From a virus: a stretch of 64,000 nucleotides of DNA. Both the position numbers and the translations under genes were made by a program. The stretch covers positions 91,237-155,236 of the IMG/VR virus record IMGVR_UViG_3300025018_000101. One strand, given 5' to 3'. Position 1 is the stretch's first letter, and every line of letters begins with the position of its first letter. Under the pieces are notes generated by a model, which had not been told where the DNA came from, searched no databases, and saw nothing but the letters and a program-made list of their open reading frames with translations. This document shows positions 10,027 to 21,793 of the stretch, in pieces.

Positions 10027-10521
10027 ATGCCGACCGACAACACCGTCGACCCTCGGGTGGAGCTCCTCCTGGAGCGGAAGATCGCGGCGCTGCACCGCGA
10101 GCTATCCCTCGAGCTCAAGGAGGGAGTCGCCGAGCTCAAGGCCATGATCGGCCGCCAGACGGACCAGGGACACGACCTGGTCTTGTCCAGCGAAAAGGCC
10201 CTGCAGCGCCATCGGGACCTCGAGGCGACGATCCTTCGGCTCGAGTCCCTGGTGCGTGGGGGCGGAAGTGACGCTCTCACTACGCGCGTCGACGACCTGC
10301 ACGCTCGACTCCGGAAGGTCGAGACTGAGGGCGAATCCTGCCCCGTCGCGACACCTCACCGGCCCTCGGCGGCCCCTAGCCTCGCCTCGACCTCGGGGCA
10401 GGAACTGGTGCCTGTCACGCTGGCGGGCATCGACTCCAGGACGAAAGTCATCGTGGCCGCTGTGACCCTGGGGTTCCCTGTCGTGTTGGAGGTCGTCCGC
10501 TGGCTGGTCTCCCGGGCCTAA
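10027..10521 (+). CDS. Coiled-coil protein with a C-terminal transmembrane helix (possibly lysis-related)
   Basis: GGAGGAG RBS; heptad-rich N-terminus; VIVAAVTLGFPVVLEVV helix; converges on the endolysin. Confidence 0.6.
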   Translation: MPTDNTVDPRVELLLERKIAALHRELSLELKEGVAELKAMIGRQTDQGHDLVLSSEKALQRHRDLEATILRLESLVRGGGSDALTTRVDDLHARLRKVETEGESCPVATPHRPSAAPSLASTSGQELVPVTLAGIDSRTKVIVAAVTLGFPVVLEVVRWLVSRA

Positions 10522-11504
10522 GCCACCGGGTTCCCGCAGTTCGTCCCGCCGAAGATGTCCTCCCACCACAGCCCGATATCGCCCTTCTGGGCCGAAACGT
10601 GATGGTGGCCGAACACGCCTCGTCCCTTGGCGTCCCCGTCCCTGACCGCGACGCCGTACGCCGGGGCGTGATCGACCAGCCCAGACGGCTGTCGCGGTGA
10701 CTGAAACGGGATGTCGAACAGAAGGCAGAGATCCTTCACGTAGGTCCGCACCGTCCGCGCCGTCTGCGGGTCGAGCGTCAACAGTCCGAAGCTCGAGGTC
10801 AGCCTCTGCGTCGGGTCAGACTTGCGGATCGCCACGTCCAGGCCGTCCCTGCGGTACAGGTTGAGGTAGCCCTCCGGGGCCTCCCGGTGCCCCGCCACAG
10901 GCTGCTGGCAGATGTCGACGCCGATGGTCGACGCGTTCACCGCGCCCGCGTGCCAGGCGACGTGATTCAGGTCCAGCCACTGGTAGACCGACCCGCCGGA
11001 GATGCCCGCGTGGCTCGAGTGCCCGGCGTTGGCCAGGCTGTCCCGACAGTGCCGAGGCGTGATGCCACCCCAGTGCAGCAGGATGGCCGTCGGTGTGCGG
11101 TGGGTGGACCGCGCCCATCCACCTCCGCGGTGGAGGTCCAGGCCCCCCAGGTCCTCCCACGTCAAGATGTGCAGGTCGGGCGACGTCGCCCGGATGCGCC
11201 TGTTCCCCACGATGTGATAGGGCTCGTGGTCAGCGACGAAGTCGTAGGTCTTGCACATGGCCGCCCACGTCGCTCGGCCGAGCTTACCGTCCACCACGGA
11301 GAAGCCCGTGGACGCCTGGAAGGCACGAACTGCCTTGGCAAAGGCCGCCGCCTGCCCGTCCTTGACGGACCAGGGATCCCCGCCCAGTCCTGGGTACTCC
11401 TCGACGGCCTGTGGCCAGATCTTGCCAGCCCACCCCAACTCCGTCGACGCCCGCTTGTTGAAGGCGACGGCCGACGCCGACGCCAGGGATGCGGTCTCAC
11501 TCAT
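10518..11504 (-). CDS. Endolysin: peptidoglycan-binding domain plus N-acetylmuramoyl-L-alanine amidase (Amidase_2-like)
   Basis: AVRAFQ...VDGKLGRATW peptidoglycan-binding motif; ILLHW, SSH, AWHAG.VN..TIGVD, GHHHV and KGD amidase motifs. Confidence 0.85.
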   Translation of the reverse strand: MSETASLASASAVAFNKRASTELGWAGKIWPQAVEEYPGLGGDPWSVKDGQAAAFAKAVRAFQASTGFSVVDGKLGRATWAAMCKTYDFVADHEPYHIVGNRRIRATSPDLHILTWEDLGGLDLHRGGGWARSTHRTPTAILLHWGGITPRHCRDSLANAGHSSHAGISGGSVYQWLDLNHVAWHAGAVNASTIGVDICQQPVAGHREAPEGYLNLYRRDGLDVAIRKSDPTQRLTSSFGLLTLDPQTARTVRTYVKDLCLLFDIPFQSPRQPSGLVDHAPAYGVAVRDGDAKGRGVFGHHHVSAQKGDIGLWWEDIFGGTNCGNPVA

Positions 11505-11913
11505 CGTCGTCCCCCGCGGGCGCGGGGGCGCCCTCTTCGGCGACCTCGCCCCCGGCGTTGATCGGGTCGTACTGCAGGGCCCAGTCACCGCCCGCCGATG
11601 CCTCGCCGATCCTACCGTTGTCGAGGTTGTCCCTGTAGGCCGCAGCGATCTCCGACAGCGCCACCGAAGCCCCCGTGGCGGCCGAGACCCCCACCAGCTC
11701 CAGGCGCCCGGCCACCGGGTTGAACTGGATGCGGATGTCGTTCGCCTGCATCCCTGCCGTCTCGGCGCACTCCGCGAGGAACTGCTCGATCTGGGCGGAC
11801 ACGCCCAGTGGAACGTCCGCGGCCGCCATCAGGTCCTGCATCAGCCGCCGGAGGCTGGTCCGGTACACAGTCGGCCGGTCATCCAGCCGCAGACCCTTCG
11901 TCATCGTCGCCAT
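11497..11913 (-). CDS. Hypothetical protein
   Basis: ORF with genome-typical codon bias; overlaps the endolysin start. Confidence 0.6.
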   Translation of the reverse strand: MATMTKGLRLDDRPTVYRTSLRRLMQDLMAAADVPLGVSAQIEQFLAECAETAGMQANDIRIQFNPVAGRLELVGVSAATGASVALSEIAAAYRDNLDNGRIGEASAGGDWALQYDPINAGGEVAEEGAPAPAGDDDE

Positions 11914-12757: not shown

Positions 12758-14059
12758 TCAGCGGGCGACGAGCACGTTGCGCTGGCGGCGCAGAACGTCG
12801 CCGTCGGTGGTCAAGCCCGTGGCCGAGGTGGCCACGGGGTCGGTGCCCTGGACGATGAAGAGGTAGTCGAGCACCAGGGCGGTGCCGTCCCAGTCGGCCA
12901 GGATGGCGTCGAGGGCCTCGGCGCACTCGCGGTCGGTGGGCCGCGCCGCCAGGGTGGACACCGTGGTCTCCGGCTTGCCGAAGACGTAGAAGAGCTGCGC
13001 CACCCCGAGGACGGTCACGAGGCAGACCGCGACGTGGACCTCGTCCCCGACGACGAGGAAGGCCGTGGTGTCGTCGGACGCGACCGCGTCCGCACCGCCG
13101 GCGAGCGCCGTGGCGGCCACCGCCGTCTGCGCCGTACCGCCGGACGCCGTCGACGCGTCGATGAGCGCGAACGCGTCGATGTTGAAGGCCGGGTCGGTGT
13201 TGTCGGTCAGCGCGGCCACGATGTCCGCGGCCGTCGTGGTGATGGCCCCGGCGACCTTCTCCAGCGTGATCGTGATCTCCGGGCCCGCGACGCCCGCCAC
13301 CACCTCGATGGACAGGTCGGAGTCCACGTCGTTGGACTCGAGCTTGACGATGGCGATGTCGTCGCCGGCGACGCCATAGTCCCTGGCGGTGTAGAGCACG
13401 GCCTCGAGGGTCACGCTGGACCGTACCGCGATCACCGCGCCGTCCCCGAGCAGGATGTCCGTGTCGGCGCCGTCCAGCGCGGCCAGAGTGGTCGTCGTGA
13501 CCGAGGTGTCCCCGAGATAGGCCACGGCCGCGCTGAAGTCCAGGTTGACCCGGTACGCATCGCCGCCGGTGGCGCCGGTGAAGGTGCTGACCGTGGTGCC
13601 CGTGGTGACCCCGATGGCCCCCGCGATGGCGCCCTCGCCGAGGGTCTGCTTCCGAGCAGCCTCGCCCACTGCGCTCAGACCGAAGGCCATCACGATCAGG
13701 TACGCCGGGCCCGCATCCATCGACTGGATCGTCAGGACGTCGTAACTGATCAGCTCCCTGCCGACCGTCGAGTCCGACCAGGTGCCGATCAGGTCGGCCA
13801 GCGCGTCGTCCACGGACGTCAGGTTCGCCAGGCCCGCGAGCTTGAACAGCGGCTGGGCCGCCGTGTCCCCGTTGTAGTGGAACTGCAGCGCAAGAACGGG
13901 GTGGTAGTCACCGTTTTGCGCGACCGGGGCGTGGAGCGTGGTGCCCGACAGGCTGTAGCCCTCGGCCGCCTGGGCGTCCACGATGGCCTGAGCCGCGGCG
14001 GCCAGGTCCAGGACGTCCTTGATGCCGAGGACCTTGAGGCGGGGGTTCTGGGTGGCCAT
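12758..14059 (-). CDS. Putative virion decoration/structural protein (Ala/Thr/Val-rich)
   Basis: AAGGAGG RBS; contains an ITTTAADIVAAL...ALAGG module like one in the sheath. Confidence 0.65.
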   Translation of the reverse strand: MATQNPRLKVLGIKDVLDLAAAAQAIVDAQAAEGYSLSGTTLHAPVAQNGDYHPVLALQFHYNGDTAAQPLFKLAGLANLTSVDDALADLIGTWSDSTVGRELISYDVLTIQSMDAGPAYLIVMAFGLSAVGEAARKQTLGEGAIAGAIGVTTGTTVSTFTGATGGDAYRVNLDFSAAVAYLGDTSVTTTTLAALDGADTDILLGDGAVIAVRSSVTLEAVLYTARDYGVAGDDIAIVKLESNDVDSDLSIEVVAGVAGPEITITLEKVAGAITTTAADIVAALTDNTDPAFNIDAFALIDASTASGGTAQTAVAATALAGGADAVASDDTTAFLVVGDEVHVAVCLVTVLGVAQLFYVFGKPETTVSTLAARPTDRECAEALDAILADWDGTALVLDYLFIVQGTDPVATSATGLTTDGDVLRRQRNVLVAR

Positions 14060-14115: not shown

Positions 14116-14143
14116 ATTATACTTACCCCTACGCCCAGCGCAA
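14116..14143 (-). promoter_or_regulatory. Sigma70-like promoter
   Basis: TTGCGC-N16-TATAAT on the minus strand. Confidence 0.6.
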
Positions 14144-14209
14144 GTCCACCCGTGCCGTCTAAAGGAGAGGGTTGCGAGCGCCGAAGCGCCCACAACCTCC
14201 TCGCGCCCG

Positions 14210-15247
14210 TCAGGGCGTCTCGGCGTCGAAGTCGGCGTCGACGTCGAACTCCGCGACGTCGAGGCCCTCGAGGGCCTCGACGTTGCCGCGGGCGACGTCG
14301 GAGAGCTTGAAGCCCTCCCCCCCGCCGAGGCGAGGTCCGAGCTCGGCGCGGTCGCGCCGCTCCCCCCACCACCGGCCCTCGAAGTCGAGGAACCGGTCGG
14401 CGGGGGGAGGCGCCCCGGCCGCGTCAGCCAGGAGCTTGCACAGCTCCAGCGCCTCGTCCGGGAGGCCGAAGACCCCCCAGATCTGCGCCGCGACGAACGC
14501 CGGGTCGCTCCGGTCGGAGACGACCAGGCGCCGAGGCCTGCGGACGTGGCGGCCGTCCGCCGTGACCGTGTCGGTCATGTGGATGGCGAACGACGCGCCC
14601 TCCACGACCAGCGCGTCCGCCTCCTCCAGACGCGCCGACCGCGTCTTTCGGAGGTCGATGCGCGTGCTCCCGTCGTGGAGCACCCGCTCGACCTCACGGC
14701 CGATCCCGAGCCGATACCAGGACCGCACCGACCTCTTGGCCAGCACGGACACCTGGCGGTCCGAGCCGCCCGCCAGGGCCCACATCAGTCGGCCCTGCGT
14801 CAGGACCCCAGCCCTCGTGTGCAGGTAGCCGCTCTTTGCGGCCACCTCCAGGGACGTGGCGAGGTGGTAGAGGCCGTCCTCCTCGAGGACGGCCCCCTTG
14901 GCCCGGCGGAGGGCGCGGCCGTTCTTGACGAGCCAGGCCGGCGTGGCCTCGCTCAACGGCACCTCGACGACGCGGTTCGCCGTCTTCGACAGACGGACGA
15001 CCGCAATGCCCGCGTCCGTCTCCTCGTTGACCGCGAAGATCATGCCGGGGCACAGGACCCCGCCGATCTCCCGGCCGCCGAGCAGGTCGACGAGCTGGAC
15101 GCCGTCGGCCCCGGTGCGGCCGTCCCTCGTGCGGTACGCCCGCACGAGCCTGTAGTCGCGCTCGAGGCGCCAGGGCCCCAGCGCCAGGCTGGGGTCGGTG
15201 TTGTAGGTGGCCGCACTCGAAGGGGTCGGGACGGGGAGCAGTTCCAT
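14210..15247 (-). CDS. Hypothetical protein with acidic C-terminus
   Basis: AGGAGG RBS; 345 aa; typical codon bias; adjacent to TA-rich element A. Confidence 0.7.
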   Translation of the reverse strand: MELLPVPTPSSAATYNTDPSLALGPWRLERDYRLVRAYRTRDGRTGADGVQLVDLLGGREIGGVLCPGMIFAVNEETDAGIAVVRLSKTANRVVEVPLSEATPAWLVKNGRALRRAKGAVLEEDGLYHLATSLEVAAKSGYLHTRAGVLTQGRLMWALAGGSDRQVSVLAKRSVRSWYRLGIGREVERVLHDGSTRIDLRKTRSARLEEADALVVEGASFAIHMTDTVTADGRHVRRPRRLVVSDRSDPAFVAAQIWGVFGLPDEALELCKLLADAAGAPPPADRFLDFEGRWWGERRDRAELGPRLGGGEGFKLSDVARGNVEALEGLDVAEFDVDADFDAETP

Positions 15248-15500
15248 AGGTCCTCCTGCAGCCCGCGTCTTGCGGGCGCTTCAAGGGGGTTGTGGGGCGC
15301 GCGGTCGCGTTTGGCGAGGCGCACCACCTTGTACCAACACTGCGGGAGGTGGAAGACTGCACTTGCTGGCCGTGCCCGGCCGTACCCCTAACTGCGCATA
15401 TCGACTATTCAATGGCGCGTACTTTCCAGCCCGGACCACACGCGGTCGACAGACTTAGACCGACACGTGCGCCATATACTGCCGCCATGGACCGTATCGA

Positions 15501-15750
15501 GGGTCCGTCTGTAGACACCGTCGAGCACGGGACTGACAGGCTTTGGAGTTTTAAACATCTAAATATCGATACGAGGGTGCGGCTGGGAGCGCCGTGCCAC
15601 TCGGGCCCGGCGGTCTTAGACGCTCTAGAGAGGCAAAAACGGCATGTTTCGTCTCCGAAGGGCACTTGCACCGCAGCGGTCTCTCCAGCGCATCAGGGTT
15701 TGGAAATGTGGAGTGCGTACACGCCGGCCTCCGCAGGCTATAGCGTACTC
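15501..15750 (+). repeat. Diverged inverted repeat, copy A (TA-rich non-coding element)
   Basis: Nearly ungapped match to the reverse complement of 19382-19632; core 15641-15670 is 26/30 identical. Confidence 0.8.
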
Positions 15751-15870
15751 AACTGCCTTAATACGCTGGCACATTTCGCGTCTAGAGGCGCTGCGCCATT
15801 CGCCGAAGCCCAGCAGCCACGTCGTACCCGGAGTCCGTAGGCTATGAGCATCCAAATGCCCATATACGGA

Positions 15871-15913
15871 AGAGGCCGTTCTCCCTGGTATGCGCCCATG
15901 GGAGACGGCCTCT
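15871..15913. other. Stem-loop in the AT-rich intergenic region
   Basis: AGAGGCCGT(T)CTCCC ... GGGAGACGGCCTCT. Confidence 0.55.
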
Positions 15914-16031
15914 ATTATATACTCCTCTTCTTGAAACAGACTACCCCGTATCTCTCTTGTGCATGCGTGACGTAAAGGTCAAGGAGGGAGGGCGTAGAAA
16001 GTTTCTTGCGGCGCGTGAATGGAGCGCGGCG

Positions 16032-16060
16032 TCGACAGGCAGTCGTGGCTGTGGTAGTGT
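16032..16060 (+). promoter_or_regulatory. Sigma70-like promoter of the 4-gene cassette
   Basis: TCGACA-N17-TAGTGT with an extended TG. Confidence 0.45.
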
Positions 16061-16169
16061 ACCGGAGCCAGAGGAGCGCACGAAGACCGCGGTCTCCAGG
16101 CGCGCGAGGACTGTCAAGACCCAGTCGGAGACCTCGTGCTCGGCAATGATGTGGCAGGAGGGCTTGTCG

Positions 16170-16496
16170 ATGACTGTTACCCGCGGCACACTCAACCCGG
16201 TGCGTCAGACGGCGGTGGGAGGTGGAGGGGGCGGCGGAGGGCCTCCGGAGACCTTCGCCACCATCGCCGCACTGCTCGCTCAGCACGCGGCCGCGCCGAT
16301 CGCTGATGGCGCCGTCTGGGCGGTCTCCAGCGTCGACGCGGGGGACCCTGTCTACGGCACCGTGGGCGGGGGCGCGCTCGTTCCTGACCCCGTGCGCGCT
16401 TGGCTTGATCGCGGGGAGCGGTCGCTCCCCCTCGCGCGTCGCATCAGGCGACCCGTCTCTCTCGACGTCGAACCCTCCGGGGTCGACTGGCTCTGA
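16170..16496 (+). CDS. Hypothetical protein with N-terminal MTVTRGTxNPVRQTA tag and poly-Gly linker
   Basis: AGGAGG RBS before the ATG at 16170. Confidence 0.6.
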   Translation: MTVTRGTLNPVRQTAVGGGGGGGGPPETFATIAALLAQHAAAPIADGAVWAVSSVDAGDPVYGTVGGGALVPDPVRAWLDRGERSLPLARRIRRPVSLDVEPSGVDWL

Positions 16497-16504
16497 GGAT
16501 CATC

Positions 16505-17473
16505 ATGGCCCTGCCCCTCTTGACCTGGGACCAGACCGCGTGGGTCGTCGTCGGAGCGACGGACCACACGACCTACCTCGACGCCATCGCCGCTGTCTTC
16601 GCGGCGTCCTCGACGTGGGAGCTCGCCGAGACGAGCACCTACTGGAGGTCGTTCAAGCCCACTGCGGGCTCGGCGATCCCGGATGCGCGTATCCTCGTCT
16701 TCTACGGCAACGGCCTGGCGGTGCCCCACGCGACGGCCCTCGGAGCCAGGACGTCCTCGGCCTCGAACCTCATGGCGTTTGTGGGCATCTCCCCCGACGC
16801 TGGCGCCACCGCGGCCGGCGACCCGACCGTTGGCGTGCCCTACGCGGGGAGGAGGTGGATCGGCTTCCACTCGTTCGACAAGCCCGCCACACGGGTGACC
16901 AACCAGATGTACGGCGTCCTCTCGGAGGAGGCGGTTGCCCTGTTCGTCCAGAAATCCTCGGTGGACACCTCCTGGGGCAGCTTCGTCGTGGGCGCCCTGG
17001 GCGTGGCGCACGTCGACGACTCTGAGGCGGATGAGCGGCTTTGGATGGTGTACGGCTCAGGCGGGTCCGGCGGTGCGGACATTGTCACCACGTGGGCGGC
17101 ATCGTCTCCCACCGCAGCGGCCGCCTTCCTGTCGAGCTACAGCGCGCCGTCGGCGACGTACAACCAGCTTTACCTCGCAGATCCGGGTTCGCCCTCGACG
17201 GTCCGCTACTGCCACAAGCAGCAACAGCTCCCCCAGGTTGACGCGAACACCCTCGTCTCGACGAGCGGGAGGACGATCGTCCTTCCACTCAACTTCACCA
17301 TCGAGTCAACGCCGAAGCGACACGGCGGCCATCTCCGCCAGATGGGGGTGGGGCCGAGTGCGGTGTGCCGGACGATCCTCCAGGACGCCACGTTAGCCGA
17401 CAAAGGCATCGTGTTCGCCCCCTCGCTGGTCACGGCGTATCCGTGCCTGGTGTTCACCGCCGACGCCATCTGA
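16505..17473 (+). CDS. Hypothetical, probably virion-associated beta-rich protein
   Basis: GAGGA RBS; Ser/Thr/Ala/Gly-rich with aromatic residues. Confidence 0.7.
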   Translation: MALPLLTWDQTAWVVVGATDHTTYLDAIAAVFAASSTWELAETSTYWRSFKPTAGSAIPDARILVFYGNGLAVPHATALGARTSSASNLMAFVGISPDAGATAAGDPTVGVPYAGRRWIGFHSFDKPATRVTNQMYGVLSEEAVALFVQKSSVDTSWGSFVVGALGVAHVDDSEADERLWMVYGSGGSGGADIVTTWAASSPTAAAAFLSSYSAPSATYNQLYLADPGSPSTVRYCHKQQQLPQVDANTLVSTSGRTIVLPLNFTIESTPKRHGGHLRQMGVGPSAVCRTILQDATLADKGIVFAPSLVTAYPCLVFTADAI

Positions 17474-17482
17474 GACGCCCGC

Positions 17483-18256
17483 ATGACCGTGACCCGAGGC
17501 ACAGCCAACCCCGTCCGGCAAACAGCGGAGGCCAGCATGCCTACCGACGTGTTCAACCGCGAACTTCGGTTCGCGGACCTGGTCGCGAACACCGACTACA
17601 CCGTCGTGACCAACCCCGCAGGTGTGACCCGCGACGGTGAGAATCGTCTGGTGCTCACCGCCAACGACACGGTCGGCCCTACCACGGTCATCTCCCTGGC
17701 TCCGCTGCTGCGCCTGCCCTTCTTCCACATCACCGAGGTGTGGGTGGGGATGTCCCTCGCCTCGTCCGCCCAGGACTACGCAGGCGGCACGAACACGCAC
17801 CTCAACACGCGGTTTGGCATCCGGCACTACGCGAAGTTCTACACGCCCACCGACGCCTCGCCGCGCCACTGCGAGGCTCACGTCGGCAAGTCGACGGCGA
17901 CGAACTGGACGACGTCAGCCGCGCGATGGGACTCGGCGCTTTGGACGCGCGGCAACGCCGCCGGCCAGTCCAACCTGAGCCTGCTCAAGATGCTGCAGTT
18001 CGGCCTCTACCACCTCTCGACCCAGGTCTACCCATCGCAGGTCGCCCATTCCTCGGCCGGGTGGGGTGCGGGCGTCAATGGGGGGAAGGGCACCAGCATC
18101 GGCATCCCGAGCCTCGGCGTGGACTGGACCGCGGAGACGGAGAGCGGGGAGCTGGAGCTCTACGTCGACCTCGGGGTCAATCCGGCGGGCAAGGACCTCG
18201 CCGTGACGCTCGACTACCTACTGGTCCGAGACTACGTGGGCAAGCTCCACCCTTGA
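17483..18256 (+). CDS. Hypothetical protein with N-terminal MTVTRGTxNPVRQTA tag (possible receptor-binding/fibre module)
   Basis: First 15 aa are 14/15 identical to the 16170 gene. Confidence 0.7.
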   Translation: MTVTRGTANPVRQTAEASMPTDVFNRELRFADLVANTDYTVVTNPAGVTRDGENRLVLTANDTVGPTTVISLAPLLRLPFFHITEVWVGMSLASSAQDYAGGTNTHLNTRFGIRHYAKFYTPTDASPRHCEAHVGKSTATNWTTSAARWDSALWTRGNAAGQSNLSLLKMLQFGLYHLSTQVYPSQVAHSSAGWGAGVNGGKGTSIGIPSLGVDWTAETESGELELYVDLGVNPAGKDLAVTLDYLLVRDYVGKLHP

Positions 18257-18259
18257 CCA

Positions 18260-18288
18260 GTCCCCGGCCTCTCGCCACGGCCGGGGAC
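18260..18288 (+). terminator. Hairpin after the 17483-18256 gene
   Basis: GTCCCCGGCC-9nt-GGCCGGGGAC; no clear U-tract. Confidence 0.45.
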
Positions 18289-18344
18289 GATGACAGGTTT
18301 GCGGCGCTCCTCTACCAGATCGGTCCCGGCATGACGGTGCGGCT

Positions 18345-19376
18345 ATGACGGACAGGATCTACAACGGCTACACGACGCGGCGCATCCCCCGCGGGGGCAA
18401 CGTGGACTGCACGGACGGCCGCGCGGTGGTTGCCAGGCCCGACGGGGGCAGCCTCGCGGGCTACACGGCCATCCTGTACCTCGAGGCATCTGAGTACGAC
18501 ACTTCGCTGGAGGGAGTACGCGTTGACGGCCGGCGCGCGGAGAACCCGGAGTGGCCCATCTGGAACGCCGACCCGGCGACCGAGCACACGCCGAACATCG
18601 ACATCCTCACCCTGATGGACGAGACCGTACTGCCGGACGGCACGGTGTACCTGGACGGTGTCACGAGCACCAACGCGGTGTCCGACGGCCTCCATGTGTC
18701 GATGGTGTGCAGGGTGGATGTACGCCGCTGCACGTTCGAGGGCGCACGGTTCGGCATGGGCATCAGCGCGGCCGGCTGCACGGCGGTCTTCGCCGACTGC
18801 ACGACGAACAACCTCAAGTACGAGCCCAACGCGCAAGCGCTCTACCCGCTGCCCTCCCTGGTCACCATGGAGCGCATCACCCTTGACGGCGTCCGCGCCT
18901 GCAACCTCCTCATCGAAGAGCCTGCCGTGACGCTCATCGGCACGGACATCGGGGTCGCGGCCGAACTTCGCCTTGAGGACGGCGCCCCCCCGGACGCCGT
19001 GACCTCCGTCGGCGCCCGCATGACCATGACGCGCTGCCAGGGCGACACGACGGTCATCTACACGCCGAAGGCCCTCATCCTCGACGACTGCTCCACCGGT
19101 CCGGTGTTCCTGTACTGGCAGACGGCCAGCCGCCAATACGACGGCGGCCAGGTGACGGTGCGTAACTGCGCGCTCCTCGACACCTGGACGACCTACGGCT
19201 ACGGCCAGATCGACATTGAGGACTGCACGGGCAACTTCGTCATCATCGCGAACGACGCTTCAGGGCCCTTCGACCCTCGGCCGAGTACCCCCCTGGTCCT
19301 CACGCGCGCAGGCAACGTCATCAACATCGAAGCGGCAGGGACGTACACCGTCGACGAGCTCGGCGCGCTGATTTGA
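18345..19376 (+). CDS. Hypothetical protein, beta-helix/solenoid-like
   Basis: Recurrent V/I-x-x-C-T motifs (VRRCT, FADCT, LDDCS, VRNCA, IEDCT). Confidence 0.65.
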   Translation: MTDRIYNGYTTRRIPRGGNVDCTDGRAVVARPDGGSLAGYTAILYLEASEYDTSLEGVRVDGRRAENPEWPIWNADPATEHTPNIDILTLMDETVLPDGTVYLDGVTSTNAVSDGLHVSMVCRVDVRRCTFEGARFGMGISAAGCTAVFADCTTNNLKYEPNAQALYPLPSLVTMERITLDGVRACNLLIEEPAVTLIGTDIGVAAELRLEDGAPPDAVTSVGARMTMTRCQGDTTVIYTPKALILDDCSTGPVFLYWQTASRQYDGGQVTVRNCALLDTWTTYGYGQIDIEDCTGNFVIIANDASGPFDPRPSTPLVLTRAGNVINIEAAGTYTVDELGALI

Positions 19377-19381
19377 GCCCT

Positions 19382-19632
19382 GACACGGCCATAGGCTGGC
19401 GACGCCGTCGTACTGGCGTCCGGTGTTTCCGAAAGAGGCCAGCTCCGGCGGGTCCGTGCGATGTAAGTGCCCTTCCGAGTCGAAACATGCGTTATTTGGC
19501 CGCTGAGCATGCTTAACACTCTCGTCGCCGCACCCGACGGTGCTCCCACGCCGATGGTCGTACCTAAAGTATAGCGACCATGGAGGCCTAAGCCGGCCAG
19601 CACGCTATACGCCGAAGACCCCAGCTCGACCC
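19382..19632 (-). repeat. Diverged inverted repeat, copy B
   Basis: Reverse complement CGCATGTTTCGACTCGGAAGGGCACTTACA versus copy A GGCATGTTTCGTCTCCGAAGGGCACTTGCA. Confidence 0.8.
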
Positions 19633-19731
19633 TTGCGGGGTCCTACTATGGTGTCCGAGGCTGCCATAGTCCAGCGGCATCGACACCAACGGAGCCCCCG
19701 GCGCTGTGTATTGAACACGCGGAAATAGCAT

Positions 19732-20412
19732 CTAGGCGTGGGTAGTCCACCCCCGCTCGACGCAGAAGACCTCGACGATGACCTGCGCGGCCATCCTCCT
19801 GCCCGCCGCGAAGCAGTATCCGAGCGCGTGCGCAGCCAGGTCTCGGCCCGTGGGCTGACTGTACATGCCCAGGAGGCTGCGCAGGAACTCGACCTCCTGA
19901 GCGTCGGTCCAGTCGCCTGCGACGCGTGCCATCTCCACCAGCCTGTTGCCTGAGAGCTCAGGCGGGTATGCGGCGGCCTCCGAAGGCGCCCGAGGAAGCC
20001 AGGCTCCGCGCTCCTGCCTGCCCGCGACGCGCCTGTCGGCCAGGGCGTAGTTGTAACTGTTGACCGCCCCAAGGGGCCAGGACAGCGGATAGCCGTCGGG
20101 CGTCGATGGAGCAGAGTACATCTGCCCCTCGAAGCAGACGTAGACCTCCGGGCCGTAGTCCGCGCCGGTCCCGTGCCACCCCGTGAAGGTTAGCCCAGCC
20201 TCCGCCAGCGCGATCCAGTCCTGGTACGCGCCGTAGTTCACCTCGTCCATGTCGAAGGACACCCAGACGGTGCCGTCCACCGTTTCCATCGACTCGGAGT
20301 CGGTCAGGTCGACGCCCTCAGGGGGCAGGTACATGTACTCGAGATGGACACGCCTCGCGCGGTCGACCTGCTCGAGCGGCATATCCAGCCTCAAGGAGCA
20401 CCGGTCACCCAT
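19732..20412 (-). CDS. Hypothetical protein
   Basis: Start at MGDRCS; typical codon bias. Confidence 0.6.
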   Translation of the reverse strand: MGDRCSLRLDMPLEQVDRARRVHLEYMYLPPEGVDLTDSESMETVDGTVWVSFDMDEVNYGAYQDWIALAEAGLTFTGWHGTGADYGPEVYVCFEGQMYSAPSTPDGYPLSWPLGAVNSYNYALADRRVAGRQERGAWLPRAPSEAAAYPPELSGNRLVEMARVAGDWTDAQEVEFLRSLLGMYSQPTGRDLAAHALGYCFAAGRRMAAQVIVEVFCVERGWTTHA

Positions 20413-20677
20413 GGCTGTGCGTCGCCCCAAGCGGGGTAGCGCGGTACGGGACGCCGAACCAGTCCACTGCGCCGTCGCAACTGAATCGGAGGATGAAGGC
20501 GCGCTCGGGCAGCGCGACACGATCCGTCCGGGAGACCGTGTACTGCAGGACGTCGGTGGTCGTGACGCCGTCCTTGATGGTCAGGATGAGCAGGTCCCCA
20601 CGGACGTCCTCTTCGTCCAGGTGAAAGACCCGCAGTCGGCCGGAGAAGTGGGGCCAGTCGATATCGTCGATTCGCAT
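20405..20677 (-). CDS. Hypothetical protein
   Basis: Start at MRIDDIDW; overlaps the next gene. Confidence 0.5.
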   Translation of the reverse strand: MRIDDIDWPHFSGRLRVFHLDEEDVRGDLLILTIKDGVTTTDVLQYTVSRTDRVALPERAFILRFSCDGAVDWFGVPYRATPLGATHSHG

Positions 20678-20801: not shown

Positions 20802-21314
20802 TCACCCGCCGGACGGCTCCGGGCCGTGCTCGTCTCCAGCGGCTGCGAGGTCCTCAGCGTTGCGCTTGACCTCGAGCTTCCTCATGTAGCGCCTGAGCGC
20901 GGCCGCCATGCCCTCGGCCCACGCCACGGCCTTGGGCTTGTCGCAGGTTATGCCGCTGGCGTAGCAGTGCGCCCACCTGTCGCCCCCGAGGACCCTCCAC
21001 CGGCTCATGATGAGCAGGGCGGCCTCGACGTTCGTGTCGACCCTGTACAGGTCCACGACGTTGTAGGGCCCGTGACGGCCCGTGACGAAGTAGGGCTTGA
21101 CCTGCAGAAGGCCGATCTCCCCGCCCCCTCCGAGGGCACTGGCGTCGAACCTGGACTCGCGCCACGCCATCGCGGCGACGAACACCGGGTCGAACCCCTT
21201 CTTCGGCGCCTGGTCCTCGATGGACTCGCACGCCACTTGCGCGCGGTCGGCGGAGACGCCTTCGGTGCTGGCGAGCGCGATGCACGCGCACACCAGCAGA
21301 CTGAACTTGCACAT
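20802..21314 (-). CDS. Lytic transglycosylase (SLT domain) with N-terminal signal/anchor sequence
   Basis: AMAWRESRF (catalytic Glu), GLLQV, NVEAA and HCYASG motifs. Confidence 0.8.
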   Translation of the reverse strand: MCKFSLLVCACIALASTEGVSADRAQVACESIEDQAPKKGFDPVFVAAMAWRESRFDASALGGGGEIGLLQVKPYFVTGRHGPYNVVDLYRVDTNVEAALLIMSRWRVLGGDRWAHCYASGITCDKPKAVAWAEGMAAALRRYMRKLEVKRNAEDLAAAGDEHGPEPSGG

Positions 21315-21334
21315 GGTGATCCTGTTGCTTAGGG

Positions 21335-21793
21335 CTACGCCGGCTTGTACCGCCGGCACAGCGCATTCACGTCTTCCCAGGACAGCTCCTGGGAGTAGAG
21401 CGTCGAGGCACCCTCGGTGCGGCCGTCAAGCGCCTCGAGGTGCTCGGCCTCGAAGTGGACGCCCCGTGGCGTCGCGGCCGCGACGAGACCGGCGCAGATC
21501 TGGGCCAGGGGCTGCACGCCGTCGACGGTCATCGCCGCGCCGCCCTCCGTGGTTCGCAGGGACGCGGAGTTCTGGACGTAGCGCGTGGCCGCCATGAAGG
21601 CGGCATCGACCCTGACGAACCCAGGCGACCCCCAGACGAGCGCCAGGGAGCGAAGCCGGTCGTCGCGGACTGCGTTGAACAGCGTATGGAGGTCGCCGAG
21701 GATACTGACGAGGTCGAGGTTGACCTCGACGACCGCCAGGACTGGCTCAGGGCCCGAGGGTACGAGCTCGACAGCGGGGATGAGCAGGTGCAT
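21335..21793 (-). CDS. Hypothetical protein
   Basis: Operon-like spacing; typical codon bias. Confidence 0.55.
   Translation of the reverse strand: MHLLIPAVELVPSGPEPVLAVVEVNLDLVSILGDLHTLFNAVRDDRLRSLALVWGSPGFVRVDAAFMAATRYVQNSASLRTTEGGAAMTVDGVQPLAQICAGLVAAATPRGVHFEAEHLEALDGRTEGASTLYSQELSWEDVNALCRRYKPA

Follow-up and report, generated by a model that had tools for sequence, protein, structure and literature searches.

Gene blocks set between inverted repeats are known from several phages. In phage P1, the inverted repeats of the C segment are about 0.6 kb long and carry the crossover sites at their outer edge. In lambda and HK022, a gene block is flanked by paired regulatory regions (OL/PL-nutL and OR/PR-nutR in lambda, putL/putR in HK022) that are inverted relative to each other. 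For Mu (the G segment) and for cyanophages, invertible segments between inverted repeats several hundred bases long have been described, the cyanophage repeats measuring 400–700 nt (10.64898/2026.02.14.705889). In the Anabaena cyanophages A-1(L), N-1, and the Elbi group, inverted repeats of this length (400–700 nt) accompany a recombinase-independent genomic isomerism of a segment of about 30 kb, both orientations of which coexist in populations (10.64898/2026.02.14.705889). Here we describe a locus of related appearance in an uncultured phage (IMG/VR record IMGVR_UViG_3300025018_000101), the genome of which is a single contig of 155,236 bp with a GC content of 69% and an estimated completeness of 88%. 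The window, which is the whole stretch of DNA that was analyzed (64,000 nt), corresponds to the last 64 kb of this contig, and coordinates refer to the window unless stated otherwise. Two diverged non-coding elements, named L and R, lie in inverted orientation at the two borders of a cassette of four genes. With the Mu (G), P1/P7 (C), and Min/Pin systems (serine invertases Gin, Cin, Pin), the locus shares a host-recognition block of 3–4 kb between inverted repeats.

The two elements, their conserved cores, and the sequence between them are as follows.

15378–15745, plus strand: element L, about 365 bp, non-coding, 59% GC, homologous to R in inverted orientation
19382–19743, minus strand: element R, inverted copy of L, non-coding, bounded by the convergent stop codons at 19376 and 19732
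15641–15670, plus strand: core of L, identical to the core of R at 26 of 30 positions, or at 36 of 45 with its flanks
19462–19491, minus strand: core of R, the partner of the L core
15746–16169: spacer, 424 bp of unique non-coding DNA from L to the first cassette gene, with no counterpart beside R
16170–16496, plus strand: cassette gene 1, 108 amino acids, made of a 15-residue tag, eight glycines, and a C-terminal part of 80 residues
16505–17473, plus strand: cassette gene 2, 322 amino acids, predicted fold of the baseplate or tail-fibre-forming type
17483–18256, plus strand: cassette gene 3, 257 amino acids, with the same N-terminal tag as gene 1
18345–19376, plus strand: cassette gene 4, 343 amino acids, predicted right-handed parallel β-helix of the tailspike/depolymerase type

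L (15378–15745, plus strand) aligns with R (19743–19382, minus strand) at 52% identity over 356 columns, and at 54% over the 248 columns of 15497–15745. The alignment contains four short gaps, a small number that is to be read with the caveat that alignments under-call indels at this level of divergence. The local alignment score of the pair was 35, compared with 10.9 ± 1.3 in 300 dinucleotide-preserving shuffles (z = 18), and in reciprocal genome-wide nhmmer searches L and R found each other with E-values of 1.7e-7 and 5.1e-9. An earlier reading of this DNA made from the letters alone (the sequence-only reading) had placed the inverted pair at 15501–15750 (+) and 19382–19632 (−), about 250 bp at roughly 55% identity, and had named a shuffled-sequence control as a possible refutation. 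The shuffles fell far below the real score, the identity judged by eye was close to the measured values, and the homology turned out to be longer, at about 365 bp. It was not found beyond either end of the elements when the flanking sequences were aligned, and the spacer has neither homology to the sequence past R nor an internal repeat of L. Further copies, for which a self-search of the genome had been proposed, did not appear: nhmmer detected no third copy anywhere in the 155-kb genome, and tblastx with L and R as queries, run on the genome and on the related contig L001, introduced below, returned the L/R pair alone.

Both elements are AT-richer than the genome (59–62% versus 69% GC), in line with the TA-richness noticed earlier, and the pair does bracket a plus-strand block: all cassette genes are on the plus strand, between minus-strand genes on both flanks. 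L lies in a divergent gene gap of 920 bp, which is unusually long for a phage, and R lies in a convergent gap and takes up its full extent (stop codons at 19376 and 19732). The longest identical run between L and R is 11 nt. Among 113 mismatches, C↔G is the largest class (34), followed by A↔G (31), C↔T (18), A↔T (11), G↔T (10), and A↔C (9). The abundance of G↔C and A↔T swaps in the sequence-only reading is borne out only as far as C↔G ranks first, although by our own arithmetic from the base composition this class is only slightly above the expectation at saturation.

One part of the alignment is a conservation outlier. The core (L 15641–15670, R 19491–19462), already picked out by eye as a 26/30 match, stands out in permutation tests both as 30 positions (p = 0.003) and with its flanks as 45 positions (p = 0.002); the L and R copies differ at 4 of the 30. 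Pattern scans of IMG/VR for the core gave chance matches only, and it was absent from 185,579 prokaryote genomes (GTDB). We infer that the core is probably a protein-binding or transcription-related sequence-specific DNA site, present once at each cassette border. Promoters, operator repeats, and RNA stem-loops common to L and R were not found, nor did a sigma-70 scan identify a promoter in either element. Iterons and significant internal repeats were also missing from both, and k-mer enrichment yielded nothing beyond composition. The A/T patches said to recur about every 10 bp were recovered in L, which has a periodicity of A/T dinucleotides (WW) of about 9.5 bp (power 11 against a 95th percentile of about 6 in the null), but not in R, where the patches had been listed, and the conservation between L and R shows no helical phasing. 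Of the earlier proposal of paired DNA sites, therefore, the general form stands, with a conserved core at each border, while its origin, wrapping, and recombination versions found no support.

The cassette has lysis and methylase genes in its neighbourhood and lies a long way from the main baseplate operon. The protein encoded by gene 2 has 37 homologs, of which the nearest is 61% identical and three more are 51% identical, these three on contigs no longer than 16 kb. Its AlphaFold2 model (predicted local distance difference test score 76, predicted template-modelling score 0.82) was matched by Foldseek to chains G (E = 3e-5) and K (E = 1e-4) of the JBD30 baseplate structure 8rk3, as well as to BFVD "virion structural proteins" of several siphophages. 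Judged from chain length and pairing only, chains G and K are probably gp47 and gp48, which belong to the architecture described for JBD30 and form its tail fibre (PMC11445458). For gene 4, a structure search of the ESM Atlas gave template-modelling scores of 0.64–0.71 to Beta_helix/NosD clusters, and a sequence search found no homolog but the protein itself. A right-handed β-helix is the usual fold of tailspikes. Because gene 2 resembles the JBD30 baseplate chains and gene 4 is modelled as a β-helix, the cassette is an accessory host-recognition module. A tag of 15 residues, MTVTRGT.NPVRQTA, opens genes 1 and 3 (16170–16214 and 17483–17527) and is unique to them within the genome. Of the ten nucleotide differences between its two copies, eight fall at third codon positions, so that selection acts on the tag peptide, which virion proteins may use in common for docking or targeting.

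Protein-alignment scans recovered a single close relative, L001, a metagenome contig of 2.5 kb that ends inside the cassette. The 322-aa gene is present there with a protein identity of 94%, preceded on the same strand by genes of 398 and 189 amino acids, and the L element is absent from the sequence upstream of the 322-aa gene. The last 80 residues of gene 1 are 65% identical to the end of the 189-aa protein (L001:1275–1844). Gene 1 is therefore a chimera, a truncated and re-headed version of the 189-aa gene whose head is a copy of the gene 3 tag followed by eight glycines. Since gene 1 has lost all but the final 80 residues of the 189-aa protein and has a different head, the left cassette border is a recombination (mosaic) junction. 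L001 also contains a perfect 16-bp palindrome, TTGCACACGTGTGCAA (L001:1246–1261), which closely precedes the start of the 189-aa gene and could be an operator or a terminator.

Other searches yielded more distant material. Protein-alignment scans of IMG/VR and GTDB gave no close relative, but three distant loci came from IMG/VR. Three proteins encoded nearby, each scanned singly against IMG/VR, gave no relatives, and neither did a phage collection (blastn and tblastn) or a plasmid collection (blastn). An RNA polymerase subunit led to one further relative (41% identity), in which the cassette gene is missing. L013, an IMG/VR contig of 332 kb, represents a distant relative in which two genes with a common stretch of about 65 residues at their starts (L013:8050–9294 and L013:12035–12676) flank the gene for the 322-aa homolog. 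This shared head is a direct DNA repeat (E = 1e-12), and it repeats the theme of the tag-sharing genes of the cassette.

The Jukes–Cantor distance between L and R is 0.70–0.78. The third positions of the duplicated tag give a similar distance of 0.93 (n = 15 codons), and the L/R duplication is roughly as old as the tag duplication. At the third positions of the 322-aa gene, this phage and L001 are separated by a distance of 0.22. The L/R distance is about three times that value, and the duplication is therefore old.

We tentatively favor the explanation that L and R are an old inverted duplication, which marks a past inversion or insertion of the accessory tail-fibre/tailspike cassette and which keeps a short core under constraint. 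The DNA duplicated in inverted orientation would have been an intergenic stretch of about 365 bp, left in copies at both cassette borders. Inverted repeats would once have framed a flip or an insertion of the cassette, like those around invertible tail-fibre segments in other phages, and the arms would then have drifted to about 52% identity. At an identity of 52–54%, the arms are no longer able to support homologous recombination. Selection would still hold the core of 30–45 bp, and possibly the spacing of a few shorter blocks. This explanation is consistent with the presence of only two copies, with the location of the arms exactly at the cassette borders, and with the orientation of the cassette, which is opposite to both flanks. 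It also fits the significant L/R homology, the host-recognition character of the cassette, the mosaic left junction, the L/R distance, the outlier core, and the precedent of long inverted repeats at invertible segments in other phages.

Several observations weigh against it. Among the relatives recovered, none has the cassette reversed or carries a single ancestral copy of the element, and the inversion history is therefore only a reconstruction. The self-search that recovers L and R found no inverted non-coding pair near the 322-aa gene in the three distant IMG/VR relatives. With L between divergent genes, R between convergent ones, and the 424-bp spacer present beside L alone, a simple flip of DNA between repeats that were already in place is not a full account. 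So few indels and such patchy conservation suggest that the elements are more constrained than a pure relic would be. The core could also be a recent patch of gene conversion rather than a selected site.

The second explanation concerns the RNAs that may be made from the elements, and it draws on the genes and signals on either side of the cassette, which are listed below.

14116–14121, minus strand: TATAAT, preceding the gene at 12758–14059 (433 amino acids), with TTGCGC 16–17 nt upstream
14170–14197, minus strand: canonical intrinsic terminator after the 345-aa gene
14210–15247, minus strand: left-flank gene, 345 amino acids, orphan, a stand-alone unit with its own terminator
15328–15335, minus strand: promoter-like motif GGTACAAG, of the recurrent form GGYAYAAG-N4-TG, 80 nt upstream of the 345-aa gene
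15871–15913: hairpin in the unique spacer, ΔG −31 to −35 kcal/mol, z about −4.4 on both strands, with AT-rich flanks
15914–15919, minus strand: TATAAT, directed at L(−) and the 345-aa gene, candidate host-type promoter
19732–20520, minus strand: right-flank gene, open reading frame (ORF) of 262 amino acids, orphan, its stop codon being the outer limit of R

The 345-, 433-, and 262-aa proteins of the flanks are orphans in family and homolog searches, and for the 345-aa protein neither a homolog, a Pfam or PHROG family, nor a confident fold was found. The true start of the gene at 19732–20520 is probably later than the start of the ORF. The 345-aa gene forms a self-contained one-gene unit because it has the GGTACAAG motif upstream and its own terminator downstream. 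In full, this GGYAYAAG-N4-TG motif spans 15335–15322 (−), just outside the left end of L, and the motif is found only outside L; a relaxed motif search returned background numbers, and k-mers of upstream regions recovered the ribosome-binding site alone. Farther out, a diverged direct repeat (11143–11267 and 20983–21118; nhmmer E about 1e-4) links an endolysin-like gene at 10518–11588 (−) to a 185-aa gene at 20802–21359 (−), and is probably a shared protein domain.

Only two copies of TATAAT occur in the 155-kb genome, with both strands counted. Both are intergenic and on the minus strand, 1.8 kb apart, and they are candidates for the only strong host-type promoters of the phage. One is aimed straight into L(−), and read on the minus strand the hairpin at 15871–15913 comes directly after this hexamer; read on the plus strand, the hairpin is followed by CCTCTATTA, resembling the terminator of the phage at genome position 61337 (−). 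No intrinsic terminator was found between TATAAT (15919–15914) and the 345-aa gene, or between the stop codon of the cassette and R. Because the rare TATAAT and the hairpin point into L(−), it is plausible that L(−) is transcribed within a long leader, and that R(+), which has the same sense, is transcribed as the 3′ untranslated region of the cassette.

These features underlie the possibility that the elements act at the RNA level through their primary sequence, which we consider unlikely but the strongest competitor of the old duplication. L(−) would lie in a leader of about 660 nt that runs from TATAAT, with the strong hairpin at its predicted 5′ end, into the 345-aa gene, and R(+) would be the end of the cassette transcript. 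Both RNAs would then contain the core in the same sense, where it could direct processing, termination, or protein binding by the transcription machinery of the phage, which has private signals such as the recurrent GGYAYAAG-N4-TG motif. R, however, lies between convergent genes, and its transcription from the other strand is equally possible. The tests for structured RNA gave no support. The folding energy of L and R was unremarkable on both strands (minimum free energy z −0.5 to −1.1), RNAalifold gave z-scores of −1.3 and +0.1 relative to column-shuffled alignments, and positionally conserved helices amounted to 90 pairs compared with 95 ± 36 in shuffled alignments, tests whose power is limited with two sequences. 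Rfam, searched with gathering and E-value thresholds, returned no match to either element.

Active recombination is a less probable alternative, which we consider quite unlikely. The cores would be crossover sites at which a recombinase inverts or exchanges the host-range cassette; the enzyme would be supplied by the host, by a gene within the 12% of the genome that is missing, or by an unrecognizable orphan such as the neighbouring 345-aa protein. Inverted sites do flank a tail-fibre/tailspike cassette, the crossover sites of serine invertases are similar in size to the 26/30 core, and the left junction points to mosaic exchange with relatives. In the 88%-complete genome, however, no Resolvase, Phage_integrase, rve, TnpB-type, or reverse transcriptase domain was recognized, and Resolvase (PF00239) had no match even at E ≤ 1. 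The four genes all run in the same direction and none crosses a border, so that inversion would switch nothing obvious. The two cores are not identical, and the 345-aa protein suggested as the binding partner has no detectable fold or family. A bolder version, which we regard as improbable, is a new kind of host-range switch in which an unrecognized recombinase (the 345-aa orphan or a host enzyme) inverts or swaps the cassette at the 30–45-bp cores and the remainder of the arms serves as a nucleoprotein scaffold. Such a role of the 365-bp arms would explain their preserved spacing.

Equally improbable is the independent insertion of miniature inverted-repeat transposable elements (MITEs) or of insertion sequence (IS) ends, with the inverted placement either accidental or produced by intramolecular replicative transposition, a process that puts inverted copies on either side of the segment it inverts. 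L and R are each found in AT-richer intergenic DNA, and an ORF on L(−) has a weak match to DUF772, the N-terminus of IS5-type transposases (E = 0.017). The match scores 15.6 bits, below the Pfam cut-off of 23.1, lies partly outside the L/R homology, and recurred neither in the homologous stretch of L nor in R. Terminal inverted repeats are absent (p = 0.44 and 0.74), there are two copies only, no transposase of the rve or TnpB families was found in the genome, and the core, as described above, is missing from IMG/VR and the 185,579 prokaryote genomes. A diversity-generating retroelement or a retron was rejected as well: RVT_1 has no match in the genome, and the L/R mismatches are of all classes, with no adenine bias.

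The sequence-only reading had also considered that L and R are two decayed paralogous genes, an idea that we now consider very improbable. It is the similar peptides (ACF.SEGHLHR and MFRL.RAL, for example), the ORF of 182 codons across L, and the few indels that speak for it. Similarity at the peptide level is seen in all three frames, however, as DNA identity alone predicts, and the mismatches are spread evenly over the codon phases in every frame (33/38/42 and 54/57/61), with a period-3 power of 0.0. By comparison, the tag shared by cassette genes 1 and 3, used as the positive control for coding, has its differences concentrated at codon position 3. The GC content of L and R is flat over the codon positions (0.57–0.64 in all frames), whereas neighbouring genes reach 0.85–0.95 at third positions. 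Nothing stood up in a Pfam search of the ORFs in L and R, and the 182-codon ORF, the longest and the only one compared with 5.8 billion proteins, matched itself alone among them. Replication origins or DNA-wrapping sites, suggested by the AT-richer sequence, the 9.5-bp WW periodicity of L, and the long 920-bp gap, are just as hard to credit, given that the GC-skew switch that was to be looked for is not at L or R, that the cumulative extreme is about 30 kb away, that R is aperiodic, and that there is no helical phasing and no iteron.

No part of a phage genome moves faster than its host-recognition modules, and little is known, beyond a few model phages, about the DNA signals that mark the borders of these modules. 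Should the cores be functional, the locus would provide a border element of a receptor-binding cassette from large phages whose lineage has been little studied; should L and R be a relic only, it would still record how a cassette was turned around and re-headed, through the chimera of gene 1 and the duplication of the N-terminal tag. As it stands, the pair is an orphan of a single uncultured genome and carries modest weight. Compared with Mu G and P1 C, the locus has no invertase gene, and its arms are non-coding and 52–54% identical. The genes all run one way and no constant part of a gene lies outside a border, so no alternative gene set would be switched. Compared with the isomers of the Anabaena cyanophages, the segment is ten times smaller, and arms of 52–54% identity are implausible substrates for homologous recombination. 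Without an invertase or alternative gene sets, and with arms too diverged, the locus belongs neither to the invertible segments nor to the cyanophage isomers. It does resemble the cyanophage isomers in that repeats of several hundred bases border a gene block, that no dedicated recombinase is evident, and that the repeat sequences are poorly conserved between phages. The elements of lambda and HK022 both head divergent operons, whereas here L is in a divergent gap and R in a convergent one. What the locus has in common with lambda OL/OR and HK022 putL/putR is a pair of homologous cis regions that face in opposite directions, a few kb apart, and each contain short conserved sites at fixed spacing.

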